Assembly (NCBI GenBank): GCA_016206805.1
Contig: JACQQX010000016.1
Location: forward strand, 13,256 to 77,255
Length of the DNA: 64,000 bases
Source: Candidatus Omnitrophota bacterium
GTDB lineage: Bacteria; Omnitrophota; Gorgyraeia; 2-02-FULL-51-18
Direction of reading: 5' to 3'
Position numbers and translations under genes: made by a program. The notes beneath the pieces are model-generated. The model was not told where the DNA came from and did no database searches. It saw nothing but the letters and a program-made list of their open reading frames with translations. Shown piece after piece: positions 9,186 to 35,466 of this stretch. Every line of letters begins with the position of its first letter. Position 1 is the first letter of the stretch.

Positions 9186-9937
9186 GGACGAACCTCAGGG
9201 TAAAACCGGTCGATTTTTTGAGTGACCACCGCGTGAGCGATAATGAGAATCCATACCGCCGTTGAAGAAGCCGCGTAATAAATCAATAGGGGCTCCAATA
9301 GTCTTTCCTGAAATAAAAAAATGCCTAATGTCAAAACCGGCAGAAAAACGGGAAACGTCACAGTTTCATGCCAGATGGAAAAAAACTTTTTTAAAAAAGG
9401 CCGTGAAGCGGCCTTATTCTCCTGCGATTTTTGCCCATAGGTATCCGGTGCTGTGATCCGTATCCTTCCCTGACGCACGCGCTGCAATATCACCATGGAT
9501 TCGCAAAAAGGAATTACCGAAAGCATCAGCGACCCATAAAAAGCCGTAAAACCCGCCGCCACCCACCCCAAACCCACTCCCAGCCCTAAAAAAGTAAATG
9601 GTGGGACAATGGCATTGGCTATCGTGTCAAAAAAAAGTCCGCTGGCGCAGGTAATGCCTTGAGCCCGGGCCACTTCGCCGTCCACATGATCCAGCAAATA
9701 CCAGCCGTTCACAAAAATAATCCCCAAAAACCATTGCCCTTGGGACAAAAACCATGCCCCCGCTAGACCGGAAACGATTGAGGCAAAGTTCACCCAAAAC
9801 GGCGAAACTGAAAACGGGACCAGAGTGGCCGTGATGTAAATAGAAATGCGCCGCATCACATGACGCCCATAAAAAGAATCCTTATTCCGTCGGGGTCCTT
9901 GCAGCTTTTCTCTCGAGAGTGCGGCCTGCTTCAGCAC
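9182..9937 (-). CDS. CDP-alcohol phosphatidyltransferase family membrane protein
   Basis: DHVDGEVARAQGITCASGLFFDTIAN matches the CDP-OH P-transferase signature D-G-x2-A-R-x7-8-G-x3-D-x3-D; multiple hydrophobic helices. Alternative start M28 (9856). Confidence 0.6.
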   Translation of the reverse strand: MLKQAALSREKLQGPRRNKDSFYGRHVMRRISIYITATLVPFSVSPFWVNFASIVSGLAGAWFLSQGQWFLGIIFVNGWYLLDHVDGEVARAQGITCASGLFFDTIANAIVPPFTFLGLGVGLGWVAAGFTAFYGSLMLSVIPFCESMVILQRVRQGRIRITAPDTYGQKSQENKAASRPFLKKFFSIWHETVTFPVFLPVLTLGIFLFQERLLEPLLIYYAASSTAVWILIIAHAVVTQKIDRFYPEVRP

Positions 9938-11469
9938 GAATCATTCTCCTTCATCTTTGAACAAACAAAACGATAAAACGCTTTGATAGATTCGCCGGCC
10001 GTTTGGCTGCCGGTTTTTATCACAAAATCAGGTTTCTGTGGCGGCTCATAAGGGCTTGCCGGCGAAAAACCGATAAGATCCGGCAATTCATTCCGCTTGG
10101 CCTTGGCATACAATCCTTTCACGTCGCGGCCCATCACGCATTCCAGATTGGCGTCAAAAAAGACCTCATAAAACGAGCCCGGTAAAAGCTCCCGGGCCGC
10201 TTGCCGCGAAACCCGGTAAGGCGAAATGATGGGGACCAGAATAACATCGAACTCCGCGCGCCTGGACGCGCAAAGTGAAGCGATGCGTTCATTGTTTTCC
10301 AGAATTTCTTCCCGGGCAAAGCCCAGATCCTTATGAAAATACTTTCTAATCTCATCTCCGTCCAGCACCAACACGGAACGGCCGCTTTTCTCTAGCAGAG
10401 CCTGGATGCCGGCGGCCACGGTTGTTTTACCCGAACCCGAAAGACCGGTAAACCAAAAAACAGGGGCGTGCCGGTAAATGCGTGAAAAATCAAAACCTTT
10501 TTCAAACTCGCGGATCAGCCTCACCATCATCTCCGCGCATCCGACCGGATCTTTTCCGATGGCCGTTTCCGCGGCCAGCACCAGTCCATCCGCGCCATCA
10601 ATCAAAGTATTGATGACGTCATTGACCTCGGCCCGCGTGGGGCCGGGAGACACCGTCATGGATTCCAGGAGATTGGTGGCCACATAAACTTTTTTCCGGG
10701 CTTTTTTGGCCTGGCGGATAATGTATTTTTGAAGCCAAGGGATCCGCTCGATAGGCTCTTCGCGCGACAAATCCCCACGGTCAATCAAAAGCGCGTCGGC
10801 CTTGGCGGAGATGTCATCCAAATGCACCAATCCATTGCGGCATTCTATCTTGGCGATCACAAAAGTATCGGGATCGCAATGCTTTCGGACTTCATCCACA
10901 TCGGAGGCGTGATTGGCAAAAGAAAGCGCCACATGACGCACGCCCATTTTCCGCCCGATCGCTAGCGCTTGAAGGTCCTTCGGCGTCATCACCGGCAGGT
11001 CAATCGGCCGCTCCACCGTCACGGCTTTATTCCGCCCGATTTTGCCGCCGTTGATCACTTTTAAAATCAGCTTGCCGCCTTCGCGCCTCACCACCTGAAC
11101 CAGCACGGCATTAAAATCAATGCTGATCCTGTCTCCCGCTCTCAACTGCGGGCCAATGCCCTCCGGATAAAAATTAAACTGACGGGCATCTCCCGGCACC
11201 GGTTCTTCGGGAATAGTCACGAGACTGTCTTTTTCTAATACCACTTCCGCCGCGGCAAAATTTCCAGTACGGATCTGGGCGCCTTCGGTGTCCAGACAAA
11301 TAGGCTTGGAGGTATGGCTTCGGATCTGCCGGATCACTTTTTCAACATCCTCGGCTTTAGTATGCGATAAATTGATGCGAAAGAGCCCGACGCCCAACTC
11401 ATCCAAACGCCGGATGACCTCCGGACCCATCGAAGAAGGGCCTAGCGTGCAAAGAATTTCTTTATTCAT
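9931..11469 (-). CDS. Fusion protein: pyruvate-kinase-like barrel domain + adenylyl-sulfate (APS) kinase-like P-loop domain
   Basis: N-terminal half is PK-like (NKEILCTLGPSS...LFRINLSHT...ICLDTEGAQIRTG...MTVSPGPTRAEVNDVINTLIDGADGLVLAAETAIGKDP). C-terminal half is CysC-like (FWFTGLSGSGKTT...LDGDEIR...ISPYRVSRQAARE...EVFFDANLECVMGRDVKGLYAKA). The start is set at MNKEIL, forming an ATGA-type overlap with the upstream flippase; the ORF could extend to 11580. Confidence 0.7.
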   Translation of the reverse strand: MNKEILCTLGPSSMGPEVIRRLDELGVGLFRINLSHTKAEDVEKVIRQIRSHTSKPICLDTEGAQIRTGNFAAAEVVLEKDSLVTIPEEPVPGDARQFNFYPEGIGPQLRAGDRISIDFNAVLVQVVRREGGKLILKVINGGKIGRNKAVTVERPIDLPVMTPKDLQALAIGRKMGVRHVALSFANHASDVDEVRKHCDPDTFVIAKIECRNGLVHLDDISAKADALLIDRGDLSREEPIERIPWLQKYIIRQAKKARKKVYVATNLLESMTVSPGPTRAEVNDVINTLIDGADGLVLAAETAIGKDPVGCAEMMVRLIREFEKGFDFSRIYRHAPVFWFTGLSGSGKTTVAAGIQALLEKSGRSVLVLDGDEIRKYFHKDLGFAREEILENNERIASLCASRRAEFDVILVPIISPYRVSRQAARELLPGSFYEVFFDANLECVMGRDVKGLYAKAKRNELPDLIGFSPASPYEPPQKPDFVIKTGSQTAGESIKAFYRFVCSKMKENDSC

Positions 11470-12959
11470 ACGATTTCCTTTCGTGCTCCCCAAAAACGTC
11501 TGCGCACCGCTCCAAAAAAATCTGTCTGCCGGTTTAATCTCCAAAGAAAAGGAGCATAAATGGCCGCGAAAATCAGCCATTGCAAAAGCGACTGCCCAAA
11601 TGACCGCTCCGCATCCGGAAAAAACGCTTTAACAATAAAGAGACAAGCCGTCATGAATAAAAACTTTCCGAGCTTGATGCCGTAATCCCGGAGACATTCT
11701 CCCAACGGAGTGATCACGCGGCAAGCGATGAAATAAGTCGCCGTGAAACGGACAAAAACCACAAAAGTCGTGGCCATGCCCACTCCAACCAGGCCCCAGC
11801 CATTCTGAAGAACCAAAAAATTGGATACAAAAGCCAGAAAGCAGACTCCGGCCATGATGGGCACCAAAATCATTTGTTTGCGCATCACCGTGATGAAATA
11901 ACTATACGGATGCGCCAAGGCCAGAAAATAGGCGCTAACGATCAAAAACCGCATCGGCTCAATGCTTCCCATGTAATCCGGCAGCACGATGCGCGCGAAA
12001 TAAGGCACCAAAAACCAACCCCCGGCGATCAAAAGCGGCATGATGGCGCTGAAAGCATCCGATGATTTGGATAGATAGCCTTTTAAATCCCGCAGATTTT
12101 CTGTTTCACCAAAGCGCTGATGAAAATTGGGGATCAAGACAACGCCGATTGAATTGGGAACCGTGCCCAGATAAGTGTAAGTCAAAATGGCGACGCTATA
12201 AATACCCAGCGCCTCCAAACCCAGCATTTTGGCGATCATGAGTTTATCAATGGTCAAAAAAAGAGCGCCCGTCAACCCTACCAGCAGCAACGGAGAACCG
12301 TAACGGATGAGTGAAATAATTTTTTCACGTTCCAAGCGCCACGCAAAAACAAAGCGGTGATGCGCGAGAATATAGACGATATTGAATAGAAAGCTGAAAC
12401 ACATGGCCCACATAAACCCATAAATTTGAAAACGATAAGACAAGACTGCCACCAACACCGCGTTGATGATAGAGGAGTAAATCATCTGCCGGGACGCCAA
12501 ACCAAAAAGCTTGTATCCCCTCAGAAAAGAAATATATAAATTATTCAACCGCTGCAGGATGACCAATGCCGACATAAAAATCAAACCATAGAAAACGACT
12601 TCCGATAAATGCGCGCGGCTCCAGAAAGCATAAACCAGAAGAGCCGCCGCCGAAATAACCGCCGTCAGGGCTGAGAAACTAAAAATCGTATCCGCGGTTT
12701 CCGTGATTTTGTCATCGTCTCCCTTCCCCTGATAATAGGGAATTTCCCGGGAAATCGCCTCCGCCACTCCAAAGGTGGTGTACGCCGAATAAACCAGGAT
12801 GATTTGCAGAAGCGACCATAAACCCATCTGGGTTGGCCCCAAAAAACGCCGGCTTAAAATTGCCGCAACCAGCGTAACCAGCTGAGTGATGATAGAAGCG
12901 GCTGAGTATAGCCCGGCGTCCAGAATAACTTTTTCTCTTTCGACCTGACGGGCATTCAT
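11466..12959 (-). CDS. Polysaccharide biosynthesis protein / Wzx-like oligosaccharide flippase (MOP superfamily)
   Basis: 497 aa with about 12 predicted hydrophobic helices throughout, and a topology and size typical of Wzx/RfbX flippases in glycan loci. Confidence 0.6.
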   Translation of the reverse strand: MNARQVEREKVILDAGLYSAASIITQLVTLVAAILSRRFLGPTQMGLWSLLQIILVYSAYTTFGVAEAISREIPYYQGKGDDDKITETADTIFSFSALTAVISAAALLVYAFWSRAHLSEVVFYGLIFMSALVILQRLNNLYISFLRGYKLFGLASRQMIYSSIINAVLVAVLSYRFQIYGFMWAMCFSFLFNIVYILAHHRFVFAWRLEREKIISLIRYGSPLLLVGLTGALFLTIDKLMIAKMLGLEALGIYSVAILTYTYLGTVPNSIGVVLIPNFHQRFGETENLRDLKGYLSKSSDAFSAIMPLLIAGGWFLVPYFARIVLPDYMGSIEPMRFLIVSAYFLALAHPYSYFITVMRKQMILVPIMAGVCFLAFVSNFLVLQNGWGLVGVGMATTFVVFVRFTATYFIACRVITPLGECLRDYGIKLGKFLFMTACLFIVKAFFPDAERSFGQSLLQWLIFAAIYAPFLWRLNRQTDFFGAVRRRFWGARKEIV

Positions 12960-14818
12960 ACGGAGACCTCGAAAGCTTTTTCAACAAATCGCACCGCGCG
13001 GTCGGAGGCCTTTCCATCGTTAAGGCCCAAATAATATCCGGGATTTCTGCGGGAAAAGCGGCTTTGATACTGATCTCTACCCTCACGCGCGAGCCATGTT
13101 AATTCTGACCGTAAGCTTTCGGCGCTGGAAACAACTTTACAATAACCATCCTGAGCATAACGGTTGAGAATATCGCTTTGAAAAGGTGGCAGCGCGACAA
13201 AAAAAGTCGGCACCTTGCCAATCGCCGATTCAATCATAGCGGTAGACCAGTAAGCCACCAGCATCGCGTCCGACTCCAAAAGGATTTTAAAAAAATCATC
13301 GGAGTGCTTGGCTAGCGTCACATGTTTTCCCGGAGATTCTTTTTCAAGAAAACTTTTCCATAGCGGAATGGATTCATAGCTATGCGGTTTGATGATTAAA
13401 TCTACCGGTAAACCCTCGATGGCTTGAAAAATCGCCCGAATCACCGGGATTTGTATTCCCCCAAAACAGATGTTGTGGTTTCCCAGATAACCCTGCTGGT
13501 CCGGCGAATGGAGCCATAATCCTGTCGCGCAAAATAAAAGCTGAAGTCTTTCATTTTTTGGAGGGGGGTTGCCGCTTTTTTCTTCCAGCATCCGGATCAA
13601 ACGGTCGTACCGGGGCGTTCCCGTAACCTGGATGCCCTCGGGATTCCATCCTCTGGCGGCGTACATATCTTTTTCAAAATCCGAATGGACTAGTGTCGTG
13701 GAATGATTGAACGTCATACCTTCCGCAGGAACCGCAAAGCTCACCGCCAGGTTCGCGTGGGAAACACAAAAAATAGGCACGCCTTTTTTTCTCATGAAAG
13801 CTGCCAGAAAAGACCCCCGAAGCGCGTAATCCTCATCCAGCACCACCGCTCCTATGAAAAAATCCTTCAATAGCCTTTCATAGAACATTTGCTCACCTTC
13901 CAGACGACCCCAATAGGTCCTTGTTGTTGGCAGGATTTCATCCCTCACAAAATCTGAAAAATCATACCCCTGATACACAAAAAGACTTTCTGCGCGCGCC
14001 GCCTCAAAAGCGGCCGCCAGCTGATTTTCAACTGTCTTTGAAAAATTTCCTGAGGATGGCAAAAGATAAGGCATGCCTTTTCGCGCTGCGAATAAAAACT
14101 GTTCCCGGTGAAATGCAAAATCATAAATCGCCGCGGGCACCCTCCGGGACTTGAGTCCTTCCAATACGGGAGCCAAATGCCTCAACGAGCCATGCACCAG
14201 AACCAATGGACGTCTGCCTGGCTTCATGCAAAACCTACAAAAGACTTCCATCGCTTTTTTGACCCATTTGGCGATACGGGACTTGAATGACTTGTCCTGA
14301 AAAGGCATAACATGCTCCCCTGCCCCCTCCTCTTCAGCGATAATCTCCTGAAAAGGGATACCCGCAGAAACACACCGCGCTTTAAGAAAAGTGTTCAAAT
14401 GCGCGTTCCCTGAGAAAAAAGGATAATCCCTTTTAGCGCTGGAAATAAAAATAAGAACTTCCTCCGGCCGCTCCTTTTCCACGATTCTTTGGGCATAATA
14501 ATAATTTTTAACAGCAGGGATGAGTGTGTAAGAGAAAAAAAGCCGGATAACGGAGATCAAATTCACATCGGGGAAAATACGTCTTTCCTGGGACAAACGT
14601 ACCCATCGTCCTGTAACCAAACATCCCCAAGTGTTGATGTCGGCCCAAAGATCTTTCAAACTAAATTCATCCAAAACCTCAAAAGCAATGCCCTTGGCCT
14701 TAAAAAAACCATAAAACCGCTCATTGTCGCAATAAATTTTCCAGGCATCTAAACGGCCTAAGGTGGCTTGCTCAAATTTTCGGTACTGGGACTGGTTGGA
14801 TAAGACAACGGCTTTCAT
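12956..14818 (-). CDS. Uncharacterised 620-aa protein; possible GT-B-fold glycosyl/glycerophosphotransferase or capsule-synthesis (KpsC/KpsS/TagF-like) domain
   Basis: No clear signature. The C-terminal half (LLFCATGLWLHSP...IKPHSYESIP...VTGTPRYDRL...) resembles GT-B C-terminal Rossmann domains. Function uncertain. Confidence 0.3.
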   Translation of the reverse strand: MKAVVLSNQSQYRKFEQATLGRLDAWKIYCDNERFYGFFKAKGIAFEVLDEFSLKDLWADINTWGCLVTGRWVRLSQERRIFPDVNLISVIRLFFSYTLIPAVKNYYYAQRIVEKERPEEVLIFISSAKRDYPFFSGNAHLNTFLKARCVSAGIPFQEIIAEEEGAGEHVMPFQDKSFKSRIAKWVKKAMEVFCRFCMKPGRRPLVLVHGSLRHLAPVLEGLKSRRVPAAIYDFAFHREQFLFAARKGMPYLLPSSGNFSKTVENQLAAAFEAARAESLFVYQGYDFSDFVRDEILPTTRTYWGRLEGEQMFYERLLKDFFIGAVVLDEDYALRGSFLAAFMRKKGVPIFCVSHANLAVSFAVPAEGMTFNHSTTLVHSDFEKDMYAARGWNPEGIQVTGTPRYDRLIRMLEEKSGNPPPKNERLQLLFCATGLWLHSPDQQGYLGNHNICFGGIQIPVIRAIFQAIEGLPVDLIIKPHSYESIPLWKSFLEKESPGKHVTLAKHSDDFFKILLESDAMLVAYWSTAMIESAIGKVPTFFVALPPFQSDILNRYAQDGYCKVVSSAESLRSELTWLAREGRDQYQSRFSRRNPGYYLGLNDGKASDRAVRFVEKAFEVSV

Positions 14819-15477
14819 GAAAGCTCGAGGTAACGGGCGAGGGCTTCATAATCGGGCAGAAGCTTGGCCTGGGGAATCGAGAGACCCTTTCCCGGAGAAA
14901 GGGCCACAAAATCCACTCCCGCTAGATGGGCACCTTCCCAGTCAGCCATGGAGTCCCCAATCATCAGCACACGACCGGCAGAATAACCATTTTCCCTTAA
15001 AATACGCGAGATGATTTCATGTTTTTTCGCCGGCACTCCATAAACGGAATGAAAATATTTATCCATGCCTCTTTTGGAAATAATGCGTCGTAGCTCCCCT
15101 TCCGGCGTGCCCGAAGCCACATGAAGCGGTAAAAGCTGGTGATGGCCGGCTAAAAAAGCATCGGCGCCCGCCATCCACGGCGCACGAGCCACCTCATCCT
15201 CGACGAGCCTTGAAAAACGGCTACCCATCGCGGACTCTTCCGAAGGCGTTAGCTCTTTATTCAAAAAAACTTTATGGCAGTGCTGAAATTTCAAAAAACG
15301 TGATACGCCAAAATTTTGCAAATGATACTCAACGGCTTTTTGGGTGATGTCCCGCCCATAAGGCGCGTAAAGCTCTTCAAAAGCCTTCACTTTGATAGCC
15401 TCGGAGTCCACTAATACGCCGTCAAAATCAAAAATCAGCGCGTCATACTTCAAAGCGGTCATGCGGTTTTGAGCCAT
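14815..15477 (-). CDS. HAD-IA family hydrolase (beta-phosphoglucomutase/phosphatase-like)
   Basis: Motif I LIFDFDGVLVDSE (DxDG), a downstream MIGDSMADWEGAHLAG motif III/IV equivalent, and a cap helical domain. Confidence 0.75.
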   Translation of the reverse strand: MAQNRMTALKYDALIFDFDGVLVDSEAIKVKAFEELYAPYGRDITQKAVEYHLQNFGVSRFLKFQHCHKVFLNKELTPSEESAMGSRFSRLVEDEVARAPWMAGADAFLAGHHQLLPLHVASGTPEGELRRIISKRGMDKYFHSVYGVPAKKHEIISRILRENGYSAGRVLMIGDSMADWEGAHLAGVDFVALSPGKGLSIPQAKLLPDYEALARYLELS

Positions 15478-16478
15478 TTTTCATTCACACAATGAAAAGG
15501 TTTTTTGCCTTCCAAAACACGCTTGGCTTCCAGCGCCGCCTTGGAACGCAGCTCGGCGTCCGCTTCCACAGAAACAAATGCCGCGTGCGGCGTAATCACC
15601 AAGCGATGCGCTATCCACGCCTCACGCTTGCGCCATGCTTTAATCAACGGGTGTTTGTTATCGGCTGGTTCTATTGGCAGAACGTCCAGTCCCGCACCGC
15701 GTAAACACCCGGACTTGAGTGCCGCATGCAGCGCATCCAAATCCATCAGCGCACCGCGCGAAGTATTGATAAAAAGAGCGTCTTTTTTCATCTTAAAAAA
15801 AAAGGAAGCGTCTGCCATCCCCTTGGTTTCAGGAGTCAGCGGCACATGCATCGACACGGCATCCGCGGCAGACAATAACTCATCCAGTGATCGGCAGCGT
15901 TTGATCCCCAACGCTTTTTCCTGTCCGGGGCCGATATAAGGATCATAAAAAAGAACCTGCATGCCAAAAGCCTTGGCCCTCATTGCCACAGCCGTCCCGA
16001 TGGGCCCCAAACCAATAATCCCCAGTACTGAACCAGTAATCCGGTGCAATGTGCCAGCCGAATGCCAATTCCAATGGCTATTGGAAGCGCGAACATTTTC
16101 ACTGAACGCGTAAATCCCCCGCGCCAATGTCAGAAAAAGCGCCAGTGCGTGATCGGCCACGTCTTCGGTTCCATAATCCGGCACATTGCACACCCGGATA
16201 CCGCGCTTGCCGGCGGCGGCCAGATCAACACTATCGACACCGACACCCATCCGGACGATCACGCGGCAACGGTCCAGCTTTTCAATAACATCCGCCCTCA
16301 TGGGCATCCAATGCCACACCAGGATCGCATCCGCGCTTTTCCAAACCTTGTCTGAAATTTCCTCTGGCCGATGCGCGCAGGGCGTCATAATCCGGGCCTT
16401 TTTCCCAAAAATCCCCTGCTCGAGGCGGGCCGGCGCCTTTAAAAGATCAGGAATGAGAATGAACGGGTGTTTTGTCAT
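15459..16478 (-). CDS. D-isomer-specific 2-hydroxyacid dehydrogenase (NAD-binding; phosphoglycerate/glycerate dehydrogenase-like)
   Basis: NAD-binding GIIGLGPIGTAVAMRAKAFGMQVLFYDPY plus a catalytic domain with the R/E/H arrangement typical of the family. The start is placed at MTKHPFILI; the ORF could extend to 16556, overlapping the upstream gene. Confidence 0.7.
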   Translation of the reverse strand: MTKHPFILIPDLLKAPARLEQGIFGKKARIMTPCAHRPEEISDKVWKSADAILVWHWMPMRADVIEKLDRCRVIVRMGVGVDSVDLAAAGKRGIRVCNVPDYGTEDVADHALALFLTLARGIYAFSENVRASNSHWNWHSAGTLHRITGSVLGIIGLGPIGTAVAMRAKAFGMQVLFYDPYIGPGQEKALGIKRCRSLDELLSAADAVSMHVPLTPETKGMADASFFFKMKKDALFINTSRGALMDLDALHAALKSGCLRGAGLDVLPIEPADNKHPLIKAWRKREAWIAHRLVITPHAAFVSVEADAELRSKAALEAKRVLEGKKPFHCVNEKWLKTA

Positions 16479-17208
16479 AAGGCGTCTGTGTTTCGGTAAA
16501 ACCATTTTTTCTAAGCCAAAACTCCACTTGCGGCATCTGCCATTCATAATCCACATCTAAACCACCCCATTGCTCCAGCGGATGCACTTTGCGGCCAATC
16601 CACGGAAAAGGCGGCACACCATAATCAAAATCAAAACATTTCGGGCGCACTACGAAAGCGGAGCAGTCCGGGAAAAAAGTATCCCCCTGCGAATCGCGAT
16701 CGCAGGTTGCTGAGCTAAAGGACTCATGGGAAATAAAAGGCTGGAGCCTTCCATTCACGATTTGATGGGCACGCAGCGGGCTCCACATGTTGTAGCGGCT
16801 TACGGTCACGGCCGAGTCCAGATCCGGATTGGCGCGAAGCGCCTCTATTCCCTTATCGATAATCCCCGGCGTCACCGTCGCGCCATTGCAAAACAAAAGA
16901 ACCATCATCTCCACTTTTTCAGGCTTGTTGCGGTCAATAATGATGTCATAACCGTTCTTAAACGCGTCTTGAGAAAGCGCTTTGTTGGTGGCCAAATTCG
17001 GATCGCGCATGATGATCTCCGCGCCGTATTCCTTGCCGATGGCCGCAATCTCAGGCGAATCCGTCGATACATACACTTTGTCCACGAGCTTTGAATGTTT
17101 GGCGGCCTGGATGCAATACGACGAAAGCGGCCTGCCGACGATTTTGGTCAGGTTTTTATTTTTGAAACCGGTGCTCCCGGCCCTTCCGATAGTGAGCGCT
17201 GCTATCAT
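16447..17208 (-). CDS. Acylneuraminate cytidylyltransferase-family protein (CMP-NulO/CMP-sugar-acid synthetase-like) with C-terminal extension
   Basis: MIAALTIGRAGSTGFKNKNLTKIVGRPL...YVSTDSPEIAAIGKEYGAEII matches CTP_transf_3 (NeuA/KdsB-like). The C-terminal ~90 residues are extra. Confidence 0.7.
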   Translation of the reverse strand: MIAALTIGRAGSTGFKNKNLTKIVGRPLSSYCIQAAKHSKLVDKVYVSTDSPEIAAIGKEYGAEIIMRDPNLATNKALSQDAFKNGYDIIIDRNKPEKVEMMVLLFCNGATVTPGIIDKGIEALRANPDLDSAVTVSRYNMWSPLRAHQIVNGRLQPFISHESFSSATCDRDSQGDTFFPDCSAFVVRPKCFDFDYGVPPFPWIGRKVHPLEQWGGLDVDYEWQMPQVEFWLRKNGFTETQTPYDKTPVHSHS

Positions 17209-17843
17209 TTTTTTATCCTTTCTCGTTGAATGGAGCTGGAAAGCTCTCCAAGGCCTTCGATCGTCATGCGGACTTCATCTCCGGGTTTCACCAACGACTG
17301 ACGAGCGCCGGCCGGAGTTCCGGTAAGGACCAAGTCCCCCGGTTCGAGCGTAAAAAATCGAGTGATCAGGCTCAACGCCTGACTATCATTGAGAATACGG
17401 TTGGCCGTCGTGCTTTTTTGAGTGATGCGCTCATTGATGCGGGTCGATAGCGCGAGGTCTCGCGTGTCCAAATCCGTCGCTAAAAAGGGTCCGACCGGGC
17501 AAAATGTCTCAAGCCCTTTGGAGCGCGCCAAATGCCAGTCGCGGCCATGAATATTTTCAGCTGTCACGTCATTGGCAATCGTGTAGCCTAAAATATAATC
17601 CCGCGCGCGCGAAACCGGCACATGTCGGGCTCTTTTTTTAATCACGAATGCCAGCTCCACCTCCACCCAAACGGTGTCGATGCCCTGCGGAATACGAATC
17701 GGCTGACCCGACAGGATCACTCCGCGCGGAGATTTGAAAAAAATAAGCGGTTCATCAAATTTCTTTTTAGGACCGACCAGGTCTTTGTAATTATAGGCCA
17801 GCGCGATAACGTTCTTGGGTTGACGGAGTTTTAAGCGTTTCAT
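17205..17843 (-). CDS. Fumarylacetoacetate hydrolase (FAH) family protein (hydratase/decarboxylase/isomerase-type)
   Basis: Matches the FAH fold consensus (NVIALAYNYKDL...PLIFFKSPRGV...WVEVELAFVIKKRA...ILGYTIANDVTAENI...GLETFCPVGPFLAT) with metal-binding acidic residues. Confidence 0.7.
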   Translation of the reverse strand: MKRLKLRQPKNVIALAYNYKDLVGPKKKFDEPLIFFKSPRGVILSGQPIRIPQGIDTVWVEVELAFVIKKRARHVPVSRARDYILGYTIANDVTAENIHGRDWHLARSKGLETFCPVGPFLATDLDTRDLALSTRINERITQKSTTANRILNDSQALSLITRFFTLEPGDLVLTGTPAGARQSLVKPGDEVRMTIEGLGELSSSIQRERIKK

Positions 17844-18871
17844 AGGAATGCGATCAAATCCGCCACGCGACGGCTATAGCCCCATTCGTTGTCATACCAT
17901 AGAACTAGCTTTACATTATTTTTTGAATTGGCACGGGTCCAGCGCCCATCCACCACCAGCGATTGGTCTATTCCCAGAAAATCCACCGAAACCAGACTTT
18001 CTTCCTGGTAACCGATAATGCGACGATTCGTGCGCGCATGCCGCTTAAAAAGCTCGTTGATGCGTTTAGCGGTGACCGGCTTGGCCAGCGTCAGCGTCAG
18101 GTCAGAAGCCGAAACAGCGCCTGTCGGCACGCGGAAGGAAATGACATTTAATTTCTCATTTAAATTGGGGAGCACGCGTCCCAAAGCCTGTCCAACGGTG
18201 GTCTCTTTGGGAATTAAGCTATAGCTGCTGGCCCGTCCAAGCGCGAAGTCTTGCCAAAAATGCCCTGGGCTCGAAACAGAACGAACAGAGCCATCCAACA
18301 GATTTTGATAAGAAAGCCAGGGATGAAGCGTTGTGATATACCCGTGGTCAATGCCATAGGCCTCATCCAGGATTTTTAGGACAGGTGCCGCCGCATTCAC
18401 ATCACAAATGCTGGCGCTGACCACGTGGTGCTTGGCCGAGTTATACTGTTTTTCGTTCACACCAAAGATAAGCGTAAAATCCACGCCGTTTTTTGGAGAA
18501 TGCGTGATGATCACTTTACGCGCCGCCTGGTCTTTCAGAAGTTTGCGGCCGGAAAGCACATTTTGATAAACGCCGCTGGCATCCACAACAACATCGACGC
18601 CATATTTTTTCCAAGGCACTCTCGCGATATCCTGCTCAGAATGAAATGAAACCTTTTGACCATCCACCGTCATGGCCATATTGCCATTGGCCGCGGCTAC
18701 TTTTCCTTTAAAGCGGCCATGGATGGAGTCGTATTTTAAAAGATAGGCGTGGTTTTCCACATTGGGGTCCAGGTCATTGACCGCGACGATGCGGAAACTT
18801 TTTTCTTTTTGATTGATCCTGAAAAGGACCCGGCCGATGCGGCCAAATCCATTGAGTCCTACGCGTATCAT
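17840..18871 (-). CDS. Glyceraldehyde-3-phosphate dehydrogenase-family paralog
   Basis: N-terminal Rossmann IRVGLNGFGRIGRVLFR...IVAVND and the catalytic Cys in VVSASICDVNAAAPVLKIL (equivalent to the S-C-T-T-N-C region). Start at MIRVGL forms an ATGA overlap with the upstream gene. Confidence 0.7.
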   Translation of the reverse strand: MIRVGLNGFGRIGRVLFRINQKEKSFRIVAVNDLDPNVENHAYLLKYDSIHGRFKGKVAAANGNMAMTVDGQKVSFHSEQDIARVPWKKYGVDVVVDASGVYQNVLSGRKLLKDQAARKVIITHSPKNGVDFTLIFGVNEKQYNSAKHHVVSASICDVNAAAPVLKILDEAYGIDHGYITTLHPWLSYQNLLDGSVRSVSSPGHFWQDFALGRASSYSLIPKETTVGQALGRVLPNLNEKLNVISFRVPTGAVSASDLTLTLAKPVTAKRINELFKRHARTNRRIIGYQEESLVSVDFLGIDQSLVVDGRWTRANSKNNVKLVLWYDNEWGYSRRVADLIAFL

Positions 18872-19848
18872 AATCTCTCCTTGGCGTATTGATCGCAAAG
18901 TCTATCCAGCATTTTGCGGTATTGAGGCCTGACTTTTTCTTTTTTGAGAATAGCTTCCATACGCTTGGCTTGTTCTTCCAGAAAAGTACTGGGAAAAACG
19001 CGTGGCACATTGGCTTCGCTCATGATTTGACGGGTGCGCGCCGTTGGCAGGGTTTTCAGGAGTTTTTGGATACGGTTTAAAAATAGCGCCGGGCCTTGGG
19101 CAAACCGCTCGAACGGAACCCGTAGGAATTTCTTTTTATCGGCATTGGAAAGCCGTCGGTAACGAGCCTGAAAACTTTTGTCAAAATGGTCCATCACGCG
19201 GATGGCCTGTTCCATGCGTCCCAAGGACGCGTATTCTTTAGCCCAACCCGCCGCAAACCACGGCACCACCTTGCCGCCCGACTGGCAGCATAGCTGAAAT
19301 TCACGCGGATCATTTCCAATGCGTTTATCCCATTGACCTTCATACCAGCTTTCGACAAGCCACAACGGATGGCGCTCCATGAGAATATAAAGCTTAAGAC
19401 GGTCCTTAAAAGCCCCGAACAAAATATCCGAAGCCCCAAAAATATAATGCGTCATGAGAAATAGAATTGATTTTTTCTTTTGGATCTGTCGGACAGTGGC
19501 ATCTCCGGCCGGAGAAGCGGCTTTGAGCCTGTAAACTTCTTCTAAACCGTTTTTAGCTGCGCCACTGTCATCGTCTTTTCTAAAATTGGTGTTGCGGCCG
19601 ATCGACTGATGATAAAGGTCAATGTCGGAAAAAAGCTGAAGCATCATCGCGCAGGCTTTTTTATCGATTTTTCCAAGCAGATGAAGCGTTGAAAGCGACT
19701 CAAAAAGATAATCCAGACACCAGAGCTCCGCCCGCTCCATCGAGGAAAGAACCGGCGCCAGAAGCGTTTTGCCGGAACGGGAAAATCCATCGATGATGAC
19801 GATATTCTTGGCCAGCCGCTGGGGCCGTATCATCTCAAGAGACGACAT
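18868..19848 (-). CDS. Putative sulfotransferase-family protein (P-loop PAPS-binding-like)
   Basis: IVIIDGFSRSGKTLLAP resembles the 5'-PSB loop (G-x-PRSGTTLL) of Sulfotransfer_3-type bacterial sulfotransferases. 326 aa. No other family motif recognised, so the call is tentative. Confidence 0.4.
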   Translation of the reverse strand: MSSLEMIRPQRLAKNIVIIDGFSRSGKTLLAPVLSSMERAELWCLDYLFESLSTLHLLGKIDKKACAMMLQLFSDIDLYHQSIGRNTNFRKDDDSGAAKNGLEEVYRLKAASPAGDATVRQIQKKKSILFLMTHYIFGASDILFGAFKDRLKLYILMERHPLWLVESWYEGQWDKRIGNDPREFQLCCQSGGKVVPWFAAGWAKEYASLGRMEQAIRVMDHFDKSFQARYRRLSNADKKKFLRVPFERFAQGPALFLNRIQKLLKTLPTARTRQIMSEANVPRVFPSTFLEEQAKRMEAILKKEKVRPQYRKMLDRLCDQYAKERL

Positions 19849-21037
19849 GTTTCAGTACCCATTGGTTTTCGGTTTTCTCCCAAACATTGGAGATCGCGCG
19901 GTAACGGTCCATCACTTCCCAGAAAAAAGGCTCTTCGATATCCATGTAATCCAAAAACCATTGAAAGTATTTTTGTGGGAACTCGCCGTCATAACGGCGC
20001 GTGAGACGCACACCCTCTTCTCGCGTCAGATGATGCCGGCGGATATCCTGCTGGGCGTCGCGTGAGGCGCGACACATGCCAAATTTCATATAACTCAAAT
20101 ACCAGTGAAAACCATCAGCCTTGTCGTCCAGGCTGACATATTTATTGTAAGTGCCTTCCGAGCGGCCATCGTCATTGCACTCGAACCCGCAATATTGGAC
20201 CGCGTAATAAAAATTCTCCTGCGGCGTCCACTTTTGATAATAAGAATACCAGTGGCCTTCCACTCCCAGCTTCCGGATTTCTTCGACGGGAGGCGCTTTG
20301 TACCATTCGAGTGCCTTGCCCACTTCACTTTCTTTGAGAATCCCCCTCTTCAATCCCACGGCCGCGATATCATCCACCGTGGCGCCCTTAAACTGCTCCA
20401 CAATCCAGTCTTCCGGACCCTGTTTGGGCAGATTTTTAAATTTTTCCTGTCCGCCGTATTCCAACTCCCCATTTTCACCGTAAAAAATGAGGCTCAAACC
20501 AAACCGCCGGGCCATGTGATAAGCCCATGATTTTTGGCCGTAAGTGAATGGCTCCCAAGCGTCACCCTTGAGCTCAAACGCCAGCTTGGTCAGCTTGCGG
20601 TGAATGGAGCCATCCGGCTGACCCAAGAGATTGCTGAATCCTGAGTTGATAAAGTTCTGGAGATTTTTATAGCCGATGTCGGTGTATTCAAACGGCGTCC
20701 ATGTCACGCATAAAGGGTGCATGCCCCAGCGGACCTTGAGCTGATGCGCTACAAAAACGCTGTCCTTGCCGCCGGAGCCCGGCACGATGCAGTCAAAACT
20801 GCCGTCTTTAGAACGATGTTTCTCCAGAAGTTGCTCAAGCTCCGATTCCCGTTTTTTCCAATTCACCGCATGGTCTTTTTCGTAAGCCCATAAACAGGCC
20901 GAGCAAATCCCGTCTTCCGTGAAGCGCGTACGCGGCCGCTGATTAGAAACTACACAGTTGCGGCAAAAACGCACCTCTTTGGGAAGCGAGTCCAATTGCT
21001 TATCGAGGATGAGTGTGGGTTTCTGCGCTGGGTTCAT
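19835..21037 (-). CDS. N-acetyl sugar amidotransferase (WbuX/PseA/PtmG family, PP-loop ATP pyrophosphatase)
   Basis: N-terminal Zn-ribbon CRNCVVSNQRP...CSAC, PP-loop SGGKDS (CIVPGSGGKDSVF), and the conserved C-terminal region of LPS-biosynthesis amidotransferases. Confidence 0.8.
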   Translation of the reverse strand: MNPAQKPTLILDKQLDSLPKEVRFCRNCVVSNQRPRTRFTEDGICSACLWAYEKDHAVNWKKRESELEQLLEKHRSKDGSFDCIVPGSGGKDSVFVAHQLKVRWGMHPLCVTWTPFEYTDIGYKNLQNFINSGFSNLLGQPDGSIHRKLTKLAFELKGDAWEPFTYGQKSWAYHMARRFGLSLIFYGENGELEYGGQEKFKNLPKQGPEDWIVEQFKGATVDDIAAVGLKRGILKESEVGKALEWYKAPPVEEIRKLGVEGHWYSYYQKWTPQENFYYAVQYCGFECNDDGRSEGTYNKYVSLDDKADGFHWYLSYMKFGMCRASRDAQQDIRRHHLTREEGVRLTRRYDGEFPQKYFQWFLDYMDIEEPFFWEVMDRYRAISNVWEKTENQWVLKHVVS

Positions 21038-21690
21038 TTTTTAGAAATAAAATTTTTAAGGATGCGTAAACCCATTTCCCCGCTGCGTTCCGGATGAAAT
21101 TGGCAACCCTGAATATTATCTTGTAACAACACCGAGCAAAAACGGTCCTGCCCATATTCGGTTTGAGCCAACCAGGCCTGAGCGCTCTCCGGATAAACGC
21201 AATAGGAGTGAACAAAATACATGCAAGGTGCTTCATCCAGCCCATTCAAAAGCGTATCGCGCCAATTCCCGCCCTTGGAAGCGAGGGTCAGCCGATTCCA
21301 GCCGATTTGCGGGATTTTATAAGACTGCCCATTGTTGGGCGCCTGGAAACGACGCACTTTTCCGGCAATCAAATTTAAACCATCGTGAGAACCGCCCTCT
21401 TCGGAATGCGTCATCAAAAGCTGCATGCCCAGGCAAATCCCAAGAACGGGACAGCCCTCAGCCGCACGCTTGCGGATCGCGCTCACCAAGCCGCGCTCAT
21501 TCAAATACCGCATGCCCGCCTCAAAAGCACCCACGCCGGGCAGAATCAGTTTTTTAGCGGATAAAATATCTTCCGGTTTTCCGGAGATCACCGAAGACGC
21601 TCCTAAAAGATCAAGGGCCCGCTGGACATTAAAAAGATTGCCCACGCCGTAATCGATGATCACCGCGTCCGGGCTTTTAGCGTTTGGCAT
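21034..21690 (-). CDS. Imidazole glycerol phosphate synthase HisH-like glutamine amidotransferase (WbuY-type)
   Basis: AVIIDYGVGNLFNVQRAL...ILPGVGAF and a class I GATase Cys-His-Glu context (GICLGMQLL, H..E). The ORF may start at 21723. Confidence 0.8.
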   Translation of the reverse strand: MPNAKSPDAVIIDYGVGNLFNVQRALDLLGASSVISGKPEDILSAKKLILPGVGAFEAGMRYLNERGLVSAIRKRAAEGCPVLGICLGMQLLMTHSEEGGSHDGLNLIAGKVRRFQAPNNGQSYKIPQIGWNRLTLASKGGNWRDTLLNGLDEAPCMYFVHSYCVYPESAQAWLAQTEYGQDRFCSVLLQDNIQGCQFHPERSGEMGLRILKNFISKK

Positions 21691-22582
21691 AAGCCAGTCC
21701 CCGCACCGGAACGCCGCATTCATCCAGATAATTTTTAAGCTCAGGCAAACCCACGTGATTCACCATAATATTTTTGTAACCGCCGTAACCGTCTTTCAAA
21801 AAATCAATATTGCCGGAGTCGATATCTTCCCCCATCCGCAGCCGAGACTCATCAAAAGACATCCATCGCCGGTTGTCGCCAGGTGCAGTCGCATAATAAT
21901 AATGAAAAACCGACGCCGCGCTGACCGCGTCAGCCGCGCCCTGTGCAATGACTGAAAGAAAATCTTCCTTCTTTCCGGCTCCGCCTCCGGCAATCACCGG
22001 CACCGGCACCGCCTTCGCAACTTTAGACGTAAAGTCGACATCAAACCCATTGCCCATGCCATCGCGACGGATAGAGGTCAAAAGAATTTCTCCGGCGCCC
22101 AGGTCTACCGCGCGCCGCGCCCAGTCAAAAGCATCAATACCGGTCGGTTGACGGCCATAGTCGGTCCACACTTCATAACCGCCATGCGTTGTTTGATAAA
22201 ACTCAATGCTGGCAACGATACATTGCGAACCAAAAATCTGAGCGGCTTCTTTTAAAAGATTGGGATTTTCGATGGCGGCGGTATTGATCGCGACTTTGTC
22301 GGCGCCCGCGCGAAGGATTTCCCGGATATCTTCAACACTGCGGATGCCGCCGGCGACTGTCATCGGGATAAAAATCTTGGCGGCGGTTTTACGGATGTAT
22401 TCCAAAAGCGAATTGCGCCGGTAAAGACTGGCCACCGTATCATAAAAAATAAGTTCGTCCGCCCCTTCGCGGTAATAAATCTCGGCCAGCGCGTCCGGAG
22501 TCCCCAAAACACGATTGCCGTCAAACTGTATTCCTTTGACGACATTAGGCCCTTTAATGTCCAGGCGCGGGATGATTCTTAC
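21677..22582 (-). CDS. HisF-like cyclase subunit (WbuZ-type) with C-terminal extension
   Basis: MVRIIPRLDIKGPNVVKGIQFDG...PDALAEIYYREGADELIFYD...VAGGIRS are HisF (beta/alpha)8 barrel motifs. The ORF could extend to 22615. Confidence 0.8.
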   Translation of the reverse strand, partial: VRIIPRLDIKGPNVVKGIQFDGNRVLGTPDALAEIYYREGADELIFYDTVASLYRRNSLLEYIRKTAAKIFIPMTVAGGIRSVEDIREILRAGADKVAINTAAIENPNLLKEAAQIFGSQCIVASIEFYQTTHGGYEVWTDYGRQPTGIDAFDWARRAVDLGAGEILLTSIRRDGMGNGFDVDFTSKVAKAVPVPVIAGGGAGKKEDFLSVIAQGAADAVSAASVFHYYYATAPGDNRRWMSFDESRLRMGEDIDSGNIDFLKDGYGGYKNIMVNHVGLPELKNYLDECGVPVRGLAYAKR

Positions 22583-23379
22583 CATACGCTCAAACCCCCA
22601 TCGACCACCAGGCACTGGCCCGTCACGTAACTGGAAGCGTCCGATGCCAAGAAAATAAGCGCGCCGGTCATTTCATTGGGCTTAGCCATTCTCCCCATCG
22701 GCACGCGTCGCGAATAATTTTGAATAAACGTTTTATCCTGCCCGTTTTCCACGCCACCCGGGACAATGGCATTGACACGAATATTTTTGGACGCCCAATC
22801 GGCGGCAAGATGCTTGGTCAGGCCAATCACACCGGCTTTGGACGCCGTATACACCGCCGGCGCGCTTAACTCCCGGGGTTTAGGATAAATACGCTGGTCG
22901 GGCGCCATGAGACCATAAATCGAAGCGGTTTGGATGATGCTGCCGCCTTGATGCCTTGCCATCCGGCCGCCCACGGTTTGCGCGACCAAAAACATGCCGT
23001 CCAAATTAACAGCCATGACTTCCCGCCAGGACGAAAGATCCATGCCCGCCGCGTTTTTGTAAAAATCGGAAGAATGCTTAAGTTTTGTAGCGGCGTTATT
23101 ATGCAAAATAGAAATGGGCCCTAGCGTCTTCTCCGCCAGGGAAACCATTCGCCGGACGCTTTGGGGATCGGAAACGTCACAACCGATGCCGACGGCTTTT
23201 ACCTCGTATTTTCCGGCAATTTCCAGCGCGAATTTTTTACAAACAGCCTCATCAACGTCCACGATGGCCACATTCGCCCCGTAATCCGCCAACGCCCGGC
23301 AAAAATAACGCCCTAAAAACCCCGAGCCGCCGGTCACCACGGCGTTCTTTTTTGAAAGGTCAAACAGACTGGGTTTCAT
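22579..23379 (-). CDS. SDR-family oxidoreductase (PtmA-like)
   Basis: NAVVTGGSGFLGRYF (TGxxxGxG), NNAA, and Y-x3-K in ASKAGVIGLTK. Start at MKPSLFDL. Confidence 0.75.
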   Translation of the reverse strand: MKPSLFDLSKKNAVVTGGSGFLGRYFCRALADYGANVAIVDVDEAVCKKFALEIAGKYEVKAVGIGCDVSDPQSVRRMVSLAEKTLGPISILHNNAATKLKHSSDFYKNAAGMDLSSWREVMAVNLDGMFLVAQTVGGRMARHQGGSIIQTASIYGLMAPDQRIYPKPRELSAPAVYTASKAGVIGLTKHLAADWASKNIRVNAIVPGGVENGQDKTFIQNYSRRVPMGRMAKPNEMTGALIFLASDASSYVTGQCLVVDGGLSVW

Positions 23380-23647
23380 GTTTATCCACCTTAAAATAAA
23401 CGCGCAAGTACATGGCGATACACGCCGCCAGGAAAATGAGAGCAAGGACGTACTTTACCTGGAGCGGCCGCTGGTCGATCAAAAGAGCATACCAGAGCGC
23501 AATAATGTTTCCGATAAAAGAAATCAGGAGCAGCCGGAAACTCAGCCCGGCCACCGTTTTTGTCTTAATCGTTTTCATGATTTGAGGCCAGTAGCAGGCG
23601 GTGAAAAGAACGGTGGCCGTCCAACCCAAAATGTCGGCGAGGGTCAT
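23360..23647 (-). CDS. Small PQ-loop (SemiSWEET/MtN3-like) membrane protein
   Basis: 95 aa with three hydrophobic helices and a PQ motif in helix 1 (FTACYWPQIMKTIKTKTVAGLS). Confidence 0.45.
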   Translation of the reverse strand: MTLADILGWTATVLFTACYWPQIMKTIKTKTVAGLSFRLLLISFIGNIIALWYALLIDQRPLQVKYVLALIFLAACIAMYLRVYFKVDKHETQSV

Positions 23648-32081: not shown

Positions 32082-32087
32082 AGGCTC

Positions 32088-33464: not shown

Positions 33465-33707
33465 TTAAGGCAGGCTCTTTTGGATAAGCTGAATAAAATC
33501 GCCGACATTTTTCAGCCGGACAATGTCTTTTGTGGAAAAAGATACGCCGAACTTCTTTTCCGAGGCGACAATCAGATTGATATGAGTCAACGAATCCCAG
33601 TTATCGACATCTCTGGCTGTCATCTGATCATGCACCTGTATCGAGTCATCATCAAACACATCCCTAAAAATCAAGTTGAGTTGGGTTCGGATCTGGTCAG
33701 CGTTCAT
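33465..33707 (-). CDS. Acyl/D-alanyl carrier protein-like (DltC-type, 80 aa)
   Basis: Four-helix carrier-protein size with a phosphopantetheine attachment Ser in DNWDSLTHINLIVASE, closely resembling the DltC pattern LDSxGxVELL. Confidence 0.7.
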   Translation of the reverse strand: MNADQIRTQLNLIFRDVFDDDSIQVHDQMTARDVDNWDSLTHINLIVASEKKFGVSFSTKDIVRLKNVGDFIQLIQKSLP

Positions 33708-35463: not shown

Positions 35464-35466
35464 GGA

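Follow-up and report, generated by a model that had tools for sequence, protein, structure and literature searches.

A conserved five-function gene cassette in an Omnitrophota surface-glycan locus, proposed to build and CMP-activate a 2-keto acid sugar

Keto-acid sugars activated with cytidine monophosphate (CMP), such as sialic, legionaminic and pseudaminic acids and 3-deoxy-D-manno-oct-2-ulosonic acid (Kdo), are key determinants of microbial surfaces, and to our knowledge all routes to them begin with a synthase that condenses phosphoenolpyruvate (PEP). A stretch of 64,000 nucleotides from a Candidatus Omnitrophota bacterium (assembly GCA_016206805.1, contig JACQQX010000016.1, positions 13,256 to 77,255 of the forward strand; the window hereafter) carries on its minus strand, at 14815-18871, a block of five genes. 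They encode a paralogue of glyceraldehyde-3-phosphate dehydrogenase (GAPDH), a fumarylacetoacetate hydrolase (FAH)-fold enzyme, a cytidylyltransferase, a 2-hydroxyacid dehydrogenase and a hydrolase of the haloacid dehalogenase (HAD) superfamily. This block is one version of a conserved, widespread and co-inherited cassette, in which the FAH position can also be held by an HpcH/HpaI-type protein. With moderate confidence, it is proposed here that this mobile, widespread cassette uses triose-level metabolites to build a 2-keto (ulosonic-type) acid, needing no PEP-condensing synthase of the NeuB or KdsA type, and activates it as a CMP-sugar destined for a surface glycan.

Several described systems share part of this gene set. 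The pathways of CMP-nonulosonic acids (NeuB/LegI/PseI followed by NeuA/LegF/PseF, and the ElaABC system) resemble the cassette in the use of a NeuA-fold enzyme with CTP- and Mg-binding motifs, in the frequent adjacency of a TagB/BFO_1060-like glycosyltransferase of the GT-B fold, and in their location in surface-glycan loci. However, the cassette lacks both the PEP-dependent synthase and the hexosamine-modifying enzymes, holds instead the GAPDH paralogue, the 2-hydroxyacid dehydrogenase, the HAD protein and the FAH or aldolase component, and its cytidylyltransferase forms a separate clade which scores below the PseF cut-off. The Kdo pathway (KdsD, KdsA, KdsC, and KdsB) likewise relies on a phosphorylated precursor, a HAD-type phosphatase and the CMP activation of a 2-keto acid sugar, but the cassette has no KdsA, and the fold of its cytidylyltransferase is nearer to NeuA than to KdsB. 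In the pathways of pyridoxal phosphate (Epd/PdxB) and serine (SerA/SerB), an aldose phosphate becomes a 2-keto acid phosphate through a GAPDH paralogue (Epd) and then a D-2-hydroxyacid dehydrogenase, and a HAD phosphatase acts afterwards, which makes them the nearest precedent for the first three steps postulated below. Unlike these enzymes, the cassette proteins do not reach the Epd or PdxB/SerA equivalog cut-offs, the GAPDH paralogue of the cassette has altered phosphate sites, and the set is coupled to a cytidylyltransferase in a glycan locus. The non-phosphorylative catabolism of L-rhamnose and L-fucose uses the same alternatives as the cassettes, that is, either an HpcH/HpaI aldolase or a short-chain dehydrogenase/reductase (SDR, acting as 4-dehydrogenase) with an FAH-fold enzyme, and homologues of the GarL aldolase and the glycerate kinase GarK of glucarate catabolism occur together in some cassette versions. 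Those systems are catabolic and cleave 2-keto-3-deoxy acids, whereas the context of the cassette is biosynthetic and CMP-linked. Finally, FkbH-type loading of glyceryl units, which involves a HAD-fold domain, also diverts a glycolytic C3 acid to a secondary or surface product, but no carrier protein belongs to the cassette, and the two do not co-occur. Full-text searches of the literature brought up no account of such a set of genes, and offered only context on the nonulosonic acid transferases of Tannerella, on ElaABC and on aldolase promiscuity.

The block consists of the following genes:

14815-15477, minus strand: HAD-type hydrolase (HAD_2, PF13419; E = 3.5e-18, 66.8 bits).
15459-16478 (probable extent; the maximal open reading frame reaches 16556), minus strand: D-2-hydroxyacid dehydrogenase (PF02826, 2.2e-52; PF00389, 1.1e-25).
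16447-17208, minus strand: cytidylyltransferase (CTP_transf_3; E = 6.6e-19).
17205-17843, minus strand: FAH-fold enzyme (FAA_hydrolase; E = 2.9e-49).
17840-18871, minus strand: GAPDH paralogue (Pfam domains Gp_dh_N and Gp_dh_C).

Because every junction overlaps, either as ATGA or, for the pair formed by the cytidylyltransferase and the 2-hydroxyacid dehydrogenase, by 32 nt, the five genes look like one translationally coupled unit, whose ends also overlap, start with stop codon, the flanking genes for a sulfotransferase-like protein and a GT-B glycosyltransferase. The E-values of the domains and the recurrence of this set of genes across many phyla exclude a chance grouping. Pfam and NCBIfam scans, which covered most of the larger open reading frames of the window, and the positions of these frames confirm the families and coordinates that an earlier sequence-only reading had given for the five genes. 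That reading had also regarded them as specialised paralogues of central-metabolism enzymes which belong to the glycan locus and match no standard nucleotide-sugar pathway, and this view is upheld: when the block proteins were placed by profile against their housekeeping counterparts, none of the five reached the NCBIfam equivalog cut-off for GapA, Epd, SerA, PdxB, PseF or KdsB.

The cassette was surveyed in about 170 loci (designated by L numbers), which comprise 3 distant members of the cytidylyltransferase family, 80 loci from species-representative genomes, 80 metagenome loci and five further contigs. The genome loci were taken around homologues of the cytidylyltransferase, and the metagenome loci were chosen through a motif specific for the GAPDH clade, relatives of which were found in 394 metagenomic stretches (80 of the 394 were used). 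Loci were annotated by clustering and with purpose-built hidden Markov models (HMMs); 40 of them, mostly metagenomic, are well-covered GAPDH-type loci and provide the cassette counts given below. Cassettes are found in more than 10 bacterial phyla, the groups represented being KSB1, Elusimicrobia, Fibrobacterota, Thermodesulfovibrionales, Rhodothermales, Acidobacteria, Myxococcota, Krumholzibacteria, Gammaproteobacteria, and Verrucomicrobia, and across these groups the four or five shared functions are encoded by orthologous genes in a syntenic arrangement. Endothiovibrio diazotrophicus is one named carrier. All 11 genome loci whose cytidylyltransferase is at least 58% identical to that of the window also encode, according to the HMMs, the GAPDH-like protein, the FAH-fold protein and an orthologue of the 2-hydroxyacid dehydrogenase. 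The GAPDH-like gene is absent from 69 of the 80 genome loci, which hold more distant cytidylyltransferases from bacteria and archaea; in these, FAH was never found and HpcH only once, and a radical-SAM/SPASM gene stands beside the cytidylyltransferase gene in place of the GAPDH-like and FAH genes.

Loci L016-L085 contain a second cassette, equally uncharacterised, with cytidylyltransferases of 49-57% identity (e.g., L047, Methanolobus psychrotolerans; L052; L056, Methanoregula; L021, Methanoperedenaceae). Its genes encode a radical-SAM/SPASM protein, an SDR, a different 2-hydroxyacid dehydrogenase, an epimerase-type SDR, a HAD protein and a BFO_1060-like transferase of 650 aa, and an oxidoreductase of the GFO family and a HisC-like aminotransferase are often present. 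This second cassette occurs in bacteria and archaea, with NeuB within 10 kb in 14 of the 69 loci. A radical-SAM/SPASM sequence also forms the N-terminal half of a 728-aa protein encoded in L088 (7822-10008), whose gene immediately precedes a minimal GAPDH-type operon. In L086 a radical-SAM protein (331 aa) and a transferase-like protein (456 aa) are encoded separately, and since the 728-aa protein equals the two together in size, it may be a fusion of both functions.

The FAH-fold protein and an HpcH/HpaI class II pyruvate aldolase are nearly mutually exclusive and interchangeable in the cassette. Among the 40 well-covered cassettes, 20 have FAH only, 16 have HpcH only, one has both and three have neither, and an SDR accompanies FAH in 17/20 cassettes versus 3/16 of those with the aldolase (p = 1.3e-4). 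The protein of the window (212 aa; PF01557, 168 bits) reaches no specific equivalog, and its closest solved relatives are the isomerase-decarboxylase HpaG/HpcE, FAHD1, and diketo-deoxyrhamnonate (diketo-rhamnonate) hydrolase; it is predicted to be a metal-dependent enzyme that works via the enolate of a 2-keto acid. Both FAH-fold enzymes and class II pyruvate aldolases act through a metal-bound enolate of this kind, and for handling the 2-keto-3-deoxy acids of L-rhamnose and L-fucose metabolism two alternative solutions are known, an aldolase or the combination of an SDR with an FAH diketo-hydrolase. Because of this common chemistry and these known alternatives, the FAH/aldolase step is read as the C-C step that would create the 2-keto acid skeleton. 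The HpcH proteins of the cassettes are similar to HpaI, GarL, and RhmA, and it has been reported that aldolases of the HpcH family take hydroxypyruvate as nucleophile and form 3,4-dihydroxy-2-oxo acids when the partner is glyceraldehyde or erythrose (PMC7610986).

The cytidylyltransferase of the window (253 aa) exceeds the PF02348 cut-off (69 versus 22.6 bits), with only residues 8-85 aligned, and a profile-sequence comparison of its family with the ordinary NeuA of the window also aligned only the first 90 residues. The extra C-terminal domain that the sequence-only reading had assigned to it does not exist according to the AlphaFold model (mean predicted local distance difference test, pLDDT, 87), which matches CMP-nonulosonic acid synthetases over the full length: it superposes over 232-243 columns, with TM scores of 0.7-0.8, on 6ifd, 9ftb/9ftc, 1qwj, 9t4z, and 1eyr. 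Its best structural matches are the synthetases of CMP-Neu5Ac, CMP-Pse, and CMP-Kdn, ahead of KdsB (root-mean-square deviation of about 7 Å) and IspD. Judging from the model, the protein is a complete single NeuA-type fold that includes the dimerisation/lid region, and Pfam stops short of its C-terminal half, which is divergent. The scores against the PseF model (82.5 versus a cut-off of 205.7) and the KdsB models (28-42 versus 155-281) are low. Residues R9, S12, and K18 and the pair D218-x-D220 are invariant among 20 members of the family; in ElaB, D211 and D213 bind Mg, and the R/S/K loop and the Asp-x-Asp motif probably constitute the CTP-binding loop and the Mg site, a positional equivalence deduced from the motifs. 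With 4905 hits and 57-84% identity across phyla, the family is unusually conserved and reaches archaea too, and a search of the PLSDB plasmids gave no match. These enzymes form a separate, highly conserved clade, which is predicted to carry out the CMP-activating step.

The GAPDH-like protein (343 aa, with an ATG start preceded by an AAGGAG Shine-Dalgarno sequence) keeps, in an alignment to solved GAPDHs, the catalytic residues Cys149 and His176, as well as Arg231. It shows the changes S148I, T150D, and T179L, the loss of Arg195 and a 9-residue insertion in the S-loop, so that R231 is the only residue retained of those forming the Ps and Pi anion sites (S148, T150, T179, R195, T208/G209, and R231). 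These changes are conserved in all clade members examined (n = 11), and the protein carries an SICD motif, invariant in the clade, the sequence HPWLSYQN and the S-loop insertion SVRSVSSPGHFW. It scores below the cut-offs of TIGR01534 (307.6 versus 367.2) and of the Epd model NF010058 (271 versus 539), and orthologues with 45-76% identity sit in the cassettes of other phyla. The first description of this protein as a GAPDH homologue with its catalytic Cys holds for Cys and His, and has to be completed with the remodelling of both anion sites. Its residues point to a clade-specific NAD-dependent aldehyde dehydrogenase paralogue in which both phosphate sites have been rebuilt. These features also bear on another explanation of the block, namely, that housekeeping gapA, serA and phosphatase genes lie together here by chance. 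Family-level names alone speak for it. Against it, all five proteins fall below the equivalog cut-offs, the anion sites are remodelled in a clade-specific manner, and the set is co-inherited with the cytidylyltransferase in many phyla and absent from two otherwise syntenic Omnitrophota loci (L171 and L172), so, as judged from this one contig of the genome, this explanation is very unlikely.

For the 2-hydroxyacid dehydrogenase, the N-termini of orthologues indicate 16478 as the probable start (MTKHPFILIPD), which gives a protein of about 339 aa. It had been described as similar to phosphoglycerate dehydrogenase (PGDH) or glycerate dehydrogenase; the D-2-hydroxyacid dehydrogenase family is correct, but its nearest solved relatives are CtBP1/2 (1e-57), with PGDH (2e-45) and McyI coming second, and the PGDH model TIGR01327 scores 233 against a cut-off of 454. 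Orthologues with 41-78% identity are present in all GAPDH-type cassettes. The HAD protein (220 aa) belongs to subfamily HAD-IA, matches no NCBIfam equivalog and starts with FDFDGVLVDSE, which holds the DxD nucleophile motif; it is a probable phosphatase. Among the 40 cassettes, 34 have a HAD protein, either of the same subfamily (F7) or of another, F24, whose DxD, K, and DD motifs are intact. As the HMM of F24 weakly matched the FkbH protein of the window, an FkbH-like glyceryl-transfer domain was considered for this subfamily and dropped, since the alignment shows the motifs of an ordinary HAD phosphatase.

The proposed route can be formulated as six steps. The GAPDH-like enzyme would take glyceraldehyde-3-phosphate, or an aldehyde like it, to the oxidation level of an acid or acyl compound (phosphoglycerate), the 2-hydroxyacid dehydrogenase would convert this product into phosphohydroxypyruvate, and the HAD protein would remove the phosphate. 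The Mg-bound enolate of hydroxypyruvate or pyruvate would then form a C-C bond with an aldehyde through the FAH-fold enzyme (elsewhere, the aldolase) or, as an alternative with FAH, would add to an activated acyl partner before a reduction, yielding in any case a cyclisable polyhydroxy-2-oxo acid. The cytidylyltransferase would make the CMP derivative of this acid, and a GT-B transferase would add the product to the glycan, which might be sulfated afterwards. If Epd/PdxB and SerA/SerB are taken as models, the GAPDH-like enzyme, the PGDH-like enzyme, the phosphatase and a bona fide glycerate kinase, which belongs to one cassette version, can be read as a coherent chain from triose phosphate to hydroxypyruvate. 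Two other routes were considered, both of which are compatible with the sequences: one of the Epd/PdxB type starting from erythrose-4-phosphate, which yields a C4 acid unable to cyclise, and a pure condensation of pyruvate with glyceraldehyde-3-phosphate, as for 2-keto-3-deoxy-6-phosphogluconate, in which neither the GAPDH-like enzyme nor the 2-hydroxyacid dehydrogenase would have a function. One of the two hypotheses of the sequence-only reading, a CMP-activated 2-keto-3-deoxy or C3-acid-derived unit, is the favoured direction, to which the survey adds the co-travelling functions, a dedicated NeuA-fold cytidylyltransferase, the replacement of FAH by an aldolase in about half of the cassettes and the glycerate kinase, while the product itself is what we infer. 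Only tentatively, the cassette may represent a route, not recognised so far, to CMP-monosaccharides of a new class, a hex-2-ulosonic or 3-hydroxy-ulosonic acid made from two triose-level units by the GAPDH paralogue and either a class II aldolase or FAH acting as a Claisen/aldol-type C-C ligase with a reductase.

Several points weigh against the triose-based route. The remodelling of both phosphate sites in the GAPDH-like protein means that glyceraldehyde-3-phosphate may not be its substrate, and phosphoglycerate is already abundant in cells, so a dedicated GAPDH is not obviously needed. We know of no precedent for the formation of C-C bonds by an FAH-fold enzyme, and a few cassettes (L090 and L156) have neither FAH nor the aldolase. 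In the version found in L087, L089, and L119, an ordinary NeuA-like enzyme is the sole cytidylyltransferase. No cassette-specific transferase is evident in the window, where the cassette lies inside a nonulosonic-acid sub-cluster and a role in tailoring would fit too. Lastly, the reading is built on genes, and every substrate assignment in it is inferential.

The window is a single long minus-strand surface-glycan locus, three of whose proteins are 100% identical to ones from a Candidatus Omnitrophica metagenome-assembled genome. The following features surround the block:

9182-9937: CDP-alcohol phosphotransferase-like membrane protein (weak match).
9931-11580, minus strand: fusion of a pyruvate-kinase barrel (PK, 3.7e-64) with an adenosine-5'-phosphosulfate (APS) kinase (APS_kinase, 9.8e-41), 549 aa.
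12956-14818, minus strand: TagB/BFO_1060/LIC12162-like GT-B glycosyltransferase, 620 aa, directly downstream of the block.
18868-19848, minus strand: sulfotransferase-like protein, 326 aa (weak Sulfotransfer_3 match), overlapping the GAPDH-like gene.
19835-22615, minus strand: acetamidino module, with WbuX (TIGR03573, 323 bits), HisH, and HisF.
22579-25256 (GFO, NeuA-like, and SDR) and 28204-29223 (NeuB), minus strand: legionaminic-acid-type module, which also includes PglD-like and CBS-DegT proteins (Pfam and NCBIfam).
29567-36174, minus strand: group of FkbH (33697-35463), SDR, MBOAT (32088-33464), a protein without domain hit and an AlgX-like SGNH protein.

A WbuX-type N-acetyl-sugar amidotransferase with HisH-like and HisF-like proteins is the usual trio for placing an acetamidino (Am) group on an amino sugar. 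The window also encodes a Wzx flippase, several glycosyltransferases of families GT2, GT4, and GT9, many GT-C proteins and a group of CDP-sugar and thiamine diphosphate (ThDP)-dependent enzymes. Its backbone is shared by L171 and L172, where the order is NeuB, GFO, NeuA-like, SDR, WbuX, 620-aa GT-B, Wzx, CDP-alcohol-transferase-like, GT2, GT2 ... GT9, without the cassette. The window and its close relative L006 exceed these two loci by two segments, the sulfotransferase-like gene with the five-gene block, and the PK/APS-kinase fusion. Because L171 and L172 are syntenic and cassette-free, the cassette is an accessory insertion, which in a conserved backbone separates the legionaminic-acid-type genes from those for the transferase and the flippase.

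The GFO/IDH/MocA oxidoreductase, NeuA-like cytidylyltransferase and SDR genes at 22579-25256 (minus strand) stand in the order ElaA-ElaB-ElaC, a trio which is also kept in L171. The ElaABC module carries out the C8 epimerisation of CMP-legionaminic acid in Acinetobacter and Vibrio (PMC13656337), and by analogy the nonulosonic acid of the backbone may be an 8-epi-legionaminic-type sugar.

A TagB/BFO_1060/LIC12162-like transferase accompanies 18/40 cassettes. In the window, the 620-aa GT-B protein was first considered as the cassette's own transferase. It shows a weak Glyphos_transf match, a score of 27 against a cut-off of 125 for TIGR04396, and E-values of 6e-11 and 2e-9 with the HMMs of transferase families F3 and F17; these two families themselves match the BFO_1060 and LIC12162 models, and NF046086 is matched by F3/F17 relatives but not by the 620-aa protein. 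Its AlphaFold model has a GT-B (TagB-like) fold. This candidate was rejected for the window because homologues in L171 and L172 follow cassette-free NeuB clusters, and the protein is probably a nonulosonic-acid transferase of the backbone rather than a cassette-specific enzyme. The sulfotransferase-like gene stands beside the cassette also in L006, L025, L087, L089, and L119, and is absent from L171 and L172. In the PK/APS-kinase fusion, the barrel lacks the regulatory C-domain and the APS-kinase domain is full (TIGR00455, 154.1 against a cut-off of 138.7); among the loci surveyed the fusion was found only in L006, and L171 and L172 do not have it. It is possible that this protein supplies 3'-phosphoadenosine-5'-phosphosulfate to the sulfotransferase-like protein for glycan sulfation, or it could act instead as a 3'-kinase on a cytidine nucleotide donor, in analogy to Campylobacter Cj1415.

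These neighbours bear on the idea that the cassette makes no sugar, but a C3 acid unit (glycerate, phosphoglycerate, or derived from hydroxypyruvate), which is activated with CMP or CDP and moved to the glycan by a TagB/TagF-like enzyme as a phospho-acid or an ether/ketal substituent. Such a unit would resemble the CDP-glycerol of teichoic acids or the phospholactyl and phosphoglyceryl nucleotide donors of F420 biosynthesis. The GAPDH-like enzyme, the PGDH-like enzyme, the phosphatase and the glycerate kinase are all C3-acid enzymes by nearest family, the associated transferases have TagB/TagF-like GT-B folds with weak Glyphos_transf matches, and some cassettes lack any candidate for C-C bond formation. 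The O-methyl phosphoramidate pathway of Campylobacter uses a 3'-phosphorylated cytidine donor, and the APS-kinase domain and the sulfotransferase-like protein of the window could handle a donor of this type; the CDP-alcohol phosphotransferase-like protein also lies nearby. However, the fold of the cytidylyltransferase is nearest to the makers of CMP-ulosonates, ahead of IspD, which forms a CDP-alcohol, and the nearly universal FAH or aldolase would be left without a role. Moreover, the CDP-alcohol transferase-like gene belongs to the cassette-free backbone, and the APS-kinase fusion is found elsewhere only in the closest relative. A C3 substituent is consequently considered a rather improbable product.

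The cassette is independent of NeuB. In the window, NeuB lies 11 kb from the block and has its own NeuA-like gene beside it; among the cassettes, only 2/40 have NeuB within 7 kb, and of the 11 cassette-bearing genome loci one has it within 10 kb. Loci with NeuB usually hold, like the window, a second cytidylyltransferase adjacent to it, and in L086 and L088 the cassette forms a compact operon that has no further sugar genes, neither for amino sugars nor NeuB, within 10 kb. These data are at odds with the suggestion of a tailoring role, in which the cassette would modify the nonulosonic acid that the locus makes via NeuB, for instance with an acyl group of the glyceroyl or hydroxypyruvoyl type, the second cytidylyltransferase being specialised for the modified sugar. 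Glyceroyl-type groups have precedents in Pse5Am7Gra of Tannerella and in the di-O-methylglyceroyl Pse of Campylobacter. Tailoring agrees with the position of the block between the acetamidino module and the nonulosonic-acid-type transferase, with the pairing of the cassette with an ordinary NeuA-like enzyme in L087, L089, and L119 (the L087 locus also has NeuB), and with the frequency of O-methyltransferases among cassettes. It also agrees with the facts that no genes have been assigned to the synthesis of the glyceroyl group in Tannerella and that homologues of PseF/LegF are thought to be specific for modified substrates (PMC5378307). Nevertheless, the cassette includes no acyl-carrier or ligase function, and this lack, together with the rarity of NeuB, the stand-alone operons and the separate NeuB-adjacent cytidylyltransferases, makes tailoring unlikely.

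The other hypothesis of the sequence-only reading was that the block feeds 1,3-bisphosphoglycerate or other C3 acids to the module of FkbH, carrier and MBOAT proteins for O-acylation. FkbH proteins do use 1,3-bisphosphoglycerate, FkbH, MBOAT and the AlgX-like SGNH protein are encoded in the same window, and MBOAT recurs in L087 and L090. However, of about 165 loci that hold the cassette or a cytidylyltransferase of its family, only 2 (L062 and L135) have FkbH and 4 have MBOAT. Stand-alone operons exist, the block is 15 kb away from FkbH with nonulosonic-acid genes between them, and the cytidylyltransferase of the cassette would have no role. This hypothesis has therefore not been sustained and is very unlikely. 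The group at 29567-36174 resembles an extracytoplasmic O-acylation module of the Dlt/Alg style, which could be a candidate for installing a glyceryl-derived ester, and the co-occurrence data show that it is independent of the cassette.

Other parts of the window and of the related loci deserve mention in their own right. A xylose-isomerase-like TIM-barrel protein of family AP_endonuc_2, the family of hydroxypyruvate isomerase, recurs in NeuB-type clusters (window 26721-27596, minus strand; L001 4893-5726; L089 408-1247), and in L001 and L089 its gene adjoins those of a class IV aminotransferase and two SDRs. At 46646-54320 (minus strand), genes for a DmpG-like aldolase and a DmpF-like acylating acetaldehyde dehydrogenase adjoin genes for a ThDP enzyme, a DegT-family protein, a 4,6-dehydratase, epimerases and a nucleotidyltransferase, a group reminiscent of the pathways of branched-chain (yersiniose-type) dideoxyhexoses. 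At least six membrane glycosyltransferases of the PMT_2/GT-C type and an 819-aa protein without domain hit are encoded at 36609-44632 and 54336-57469 (minus strand), an unusually large number of transferases that use lipid-linked donors.

The cassette is best classed with CMP-ulosonic-acid biosynthesis; the triose route, if real, would be a novel means of producing these sugars. A conserved cassette that does without a PEP-condensing synthase suggests that either a sugar or a way of making one has so far gone undiscovered. The cassette also offers a candidate function for the GAPDH paralogue clade, for a biosynthetic use of the FAH fold and for thousands of "NeuA-like" genes which are now annotated as sialic-acid synthetases. 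If the triose-based, NeuB-independent route proves true, it would be a third way to ulosonic acids, beside those of NeuB and KdsA, on the surfaces of bacteria from many, mostly uncultured, phyla.

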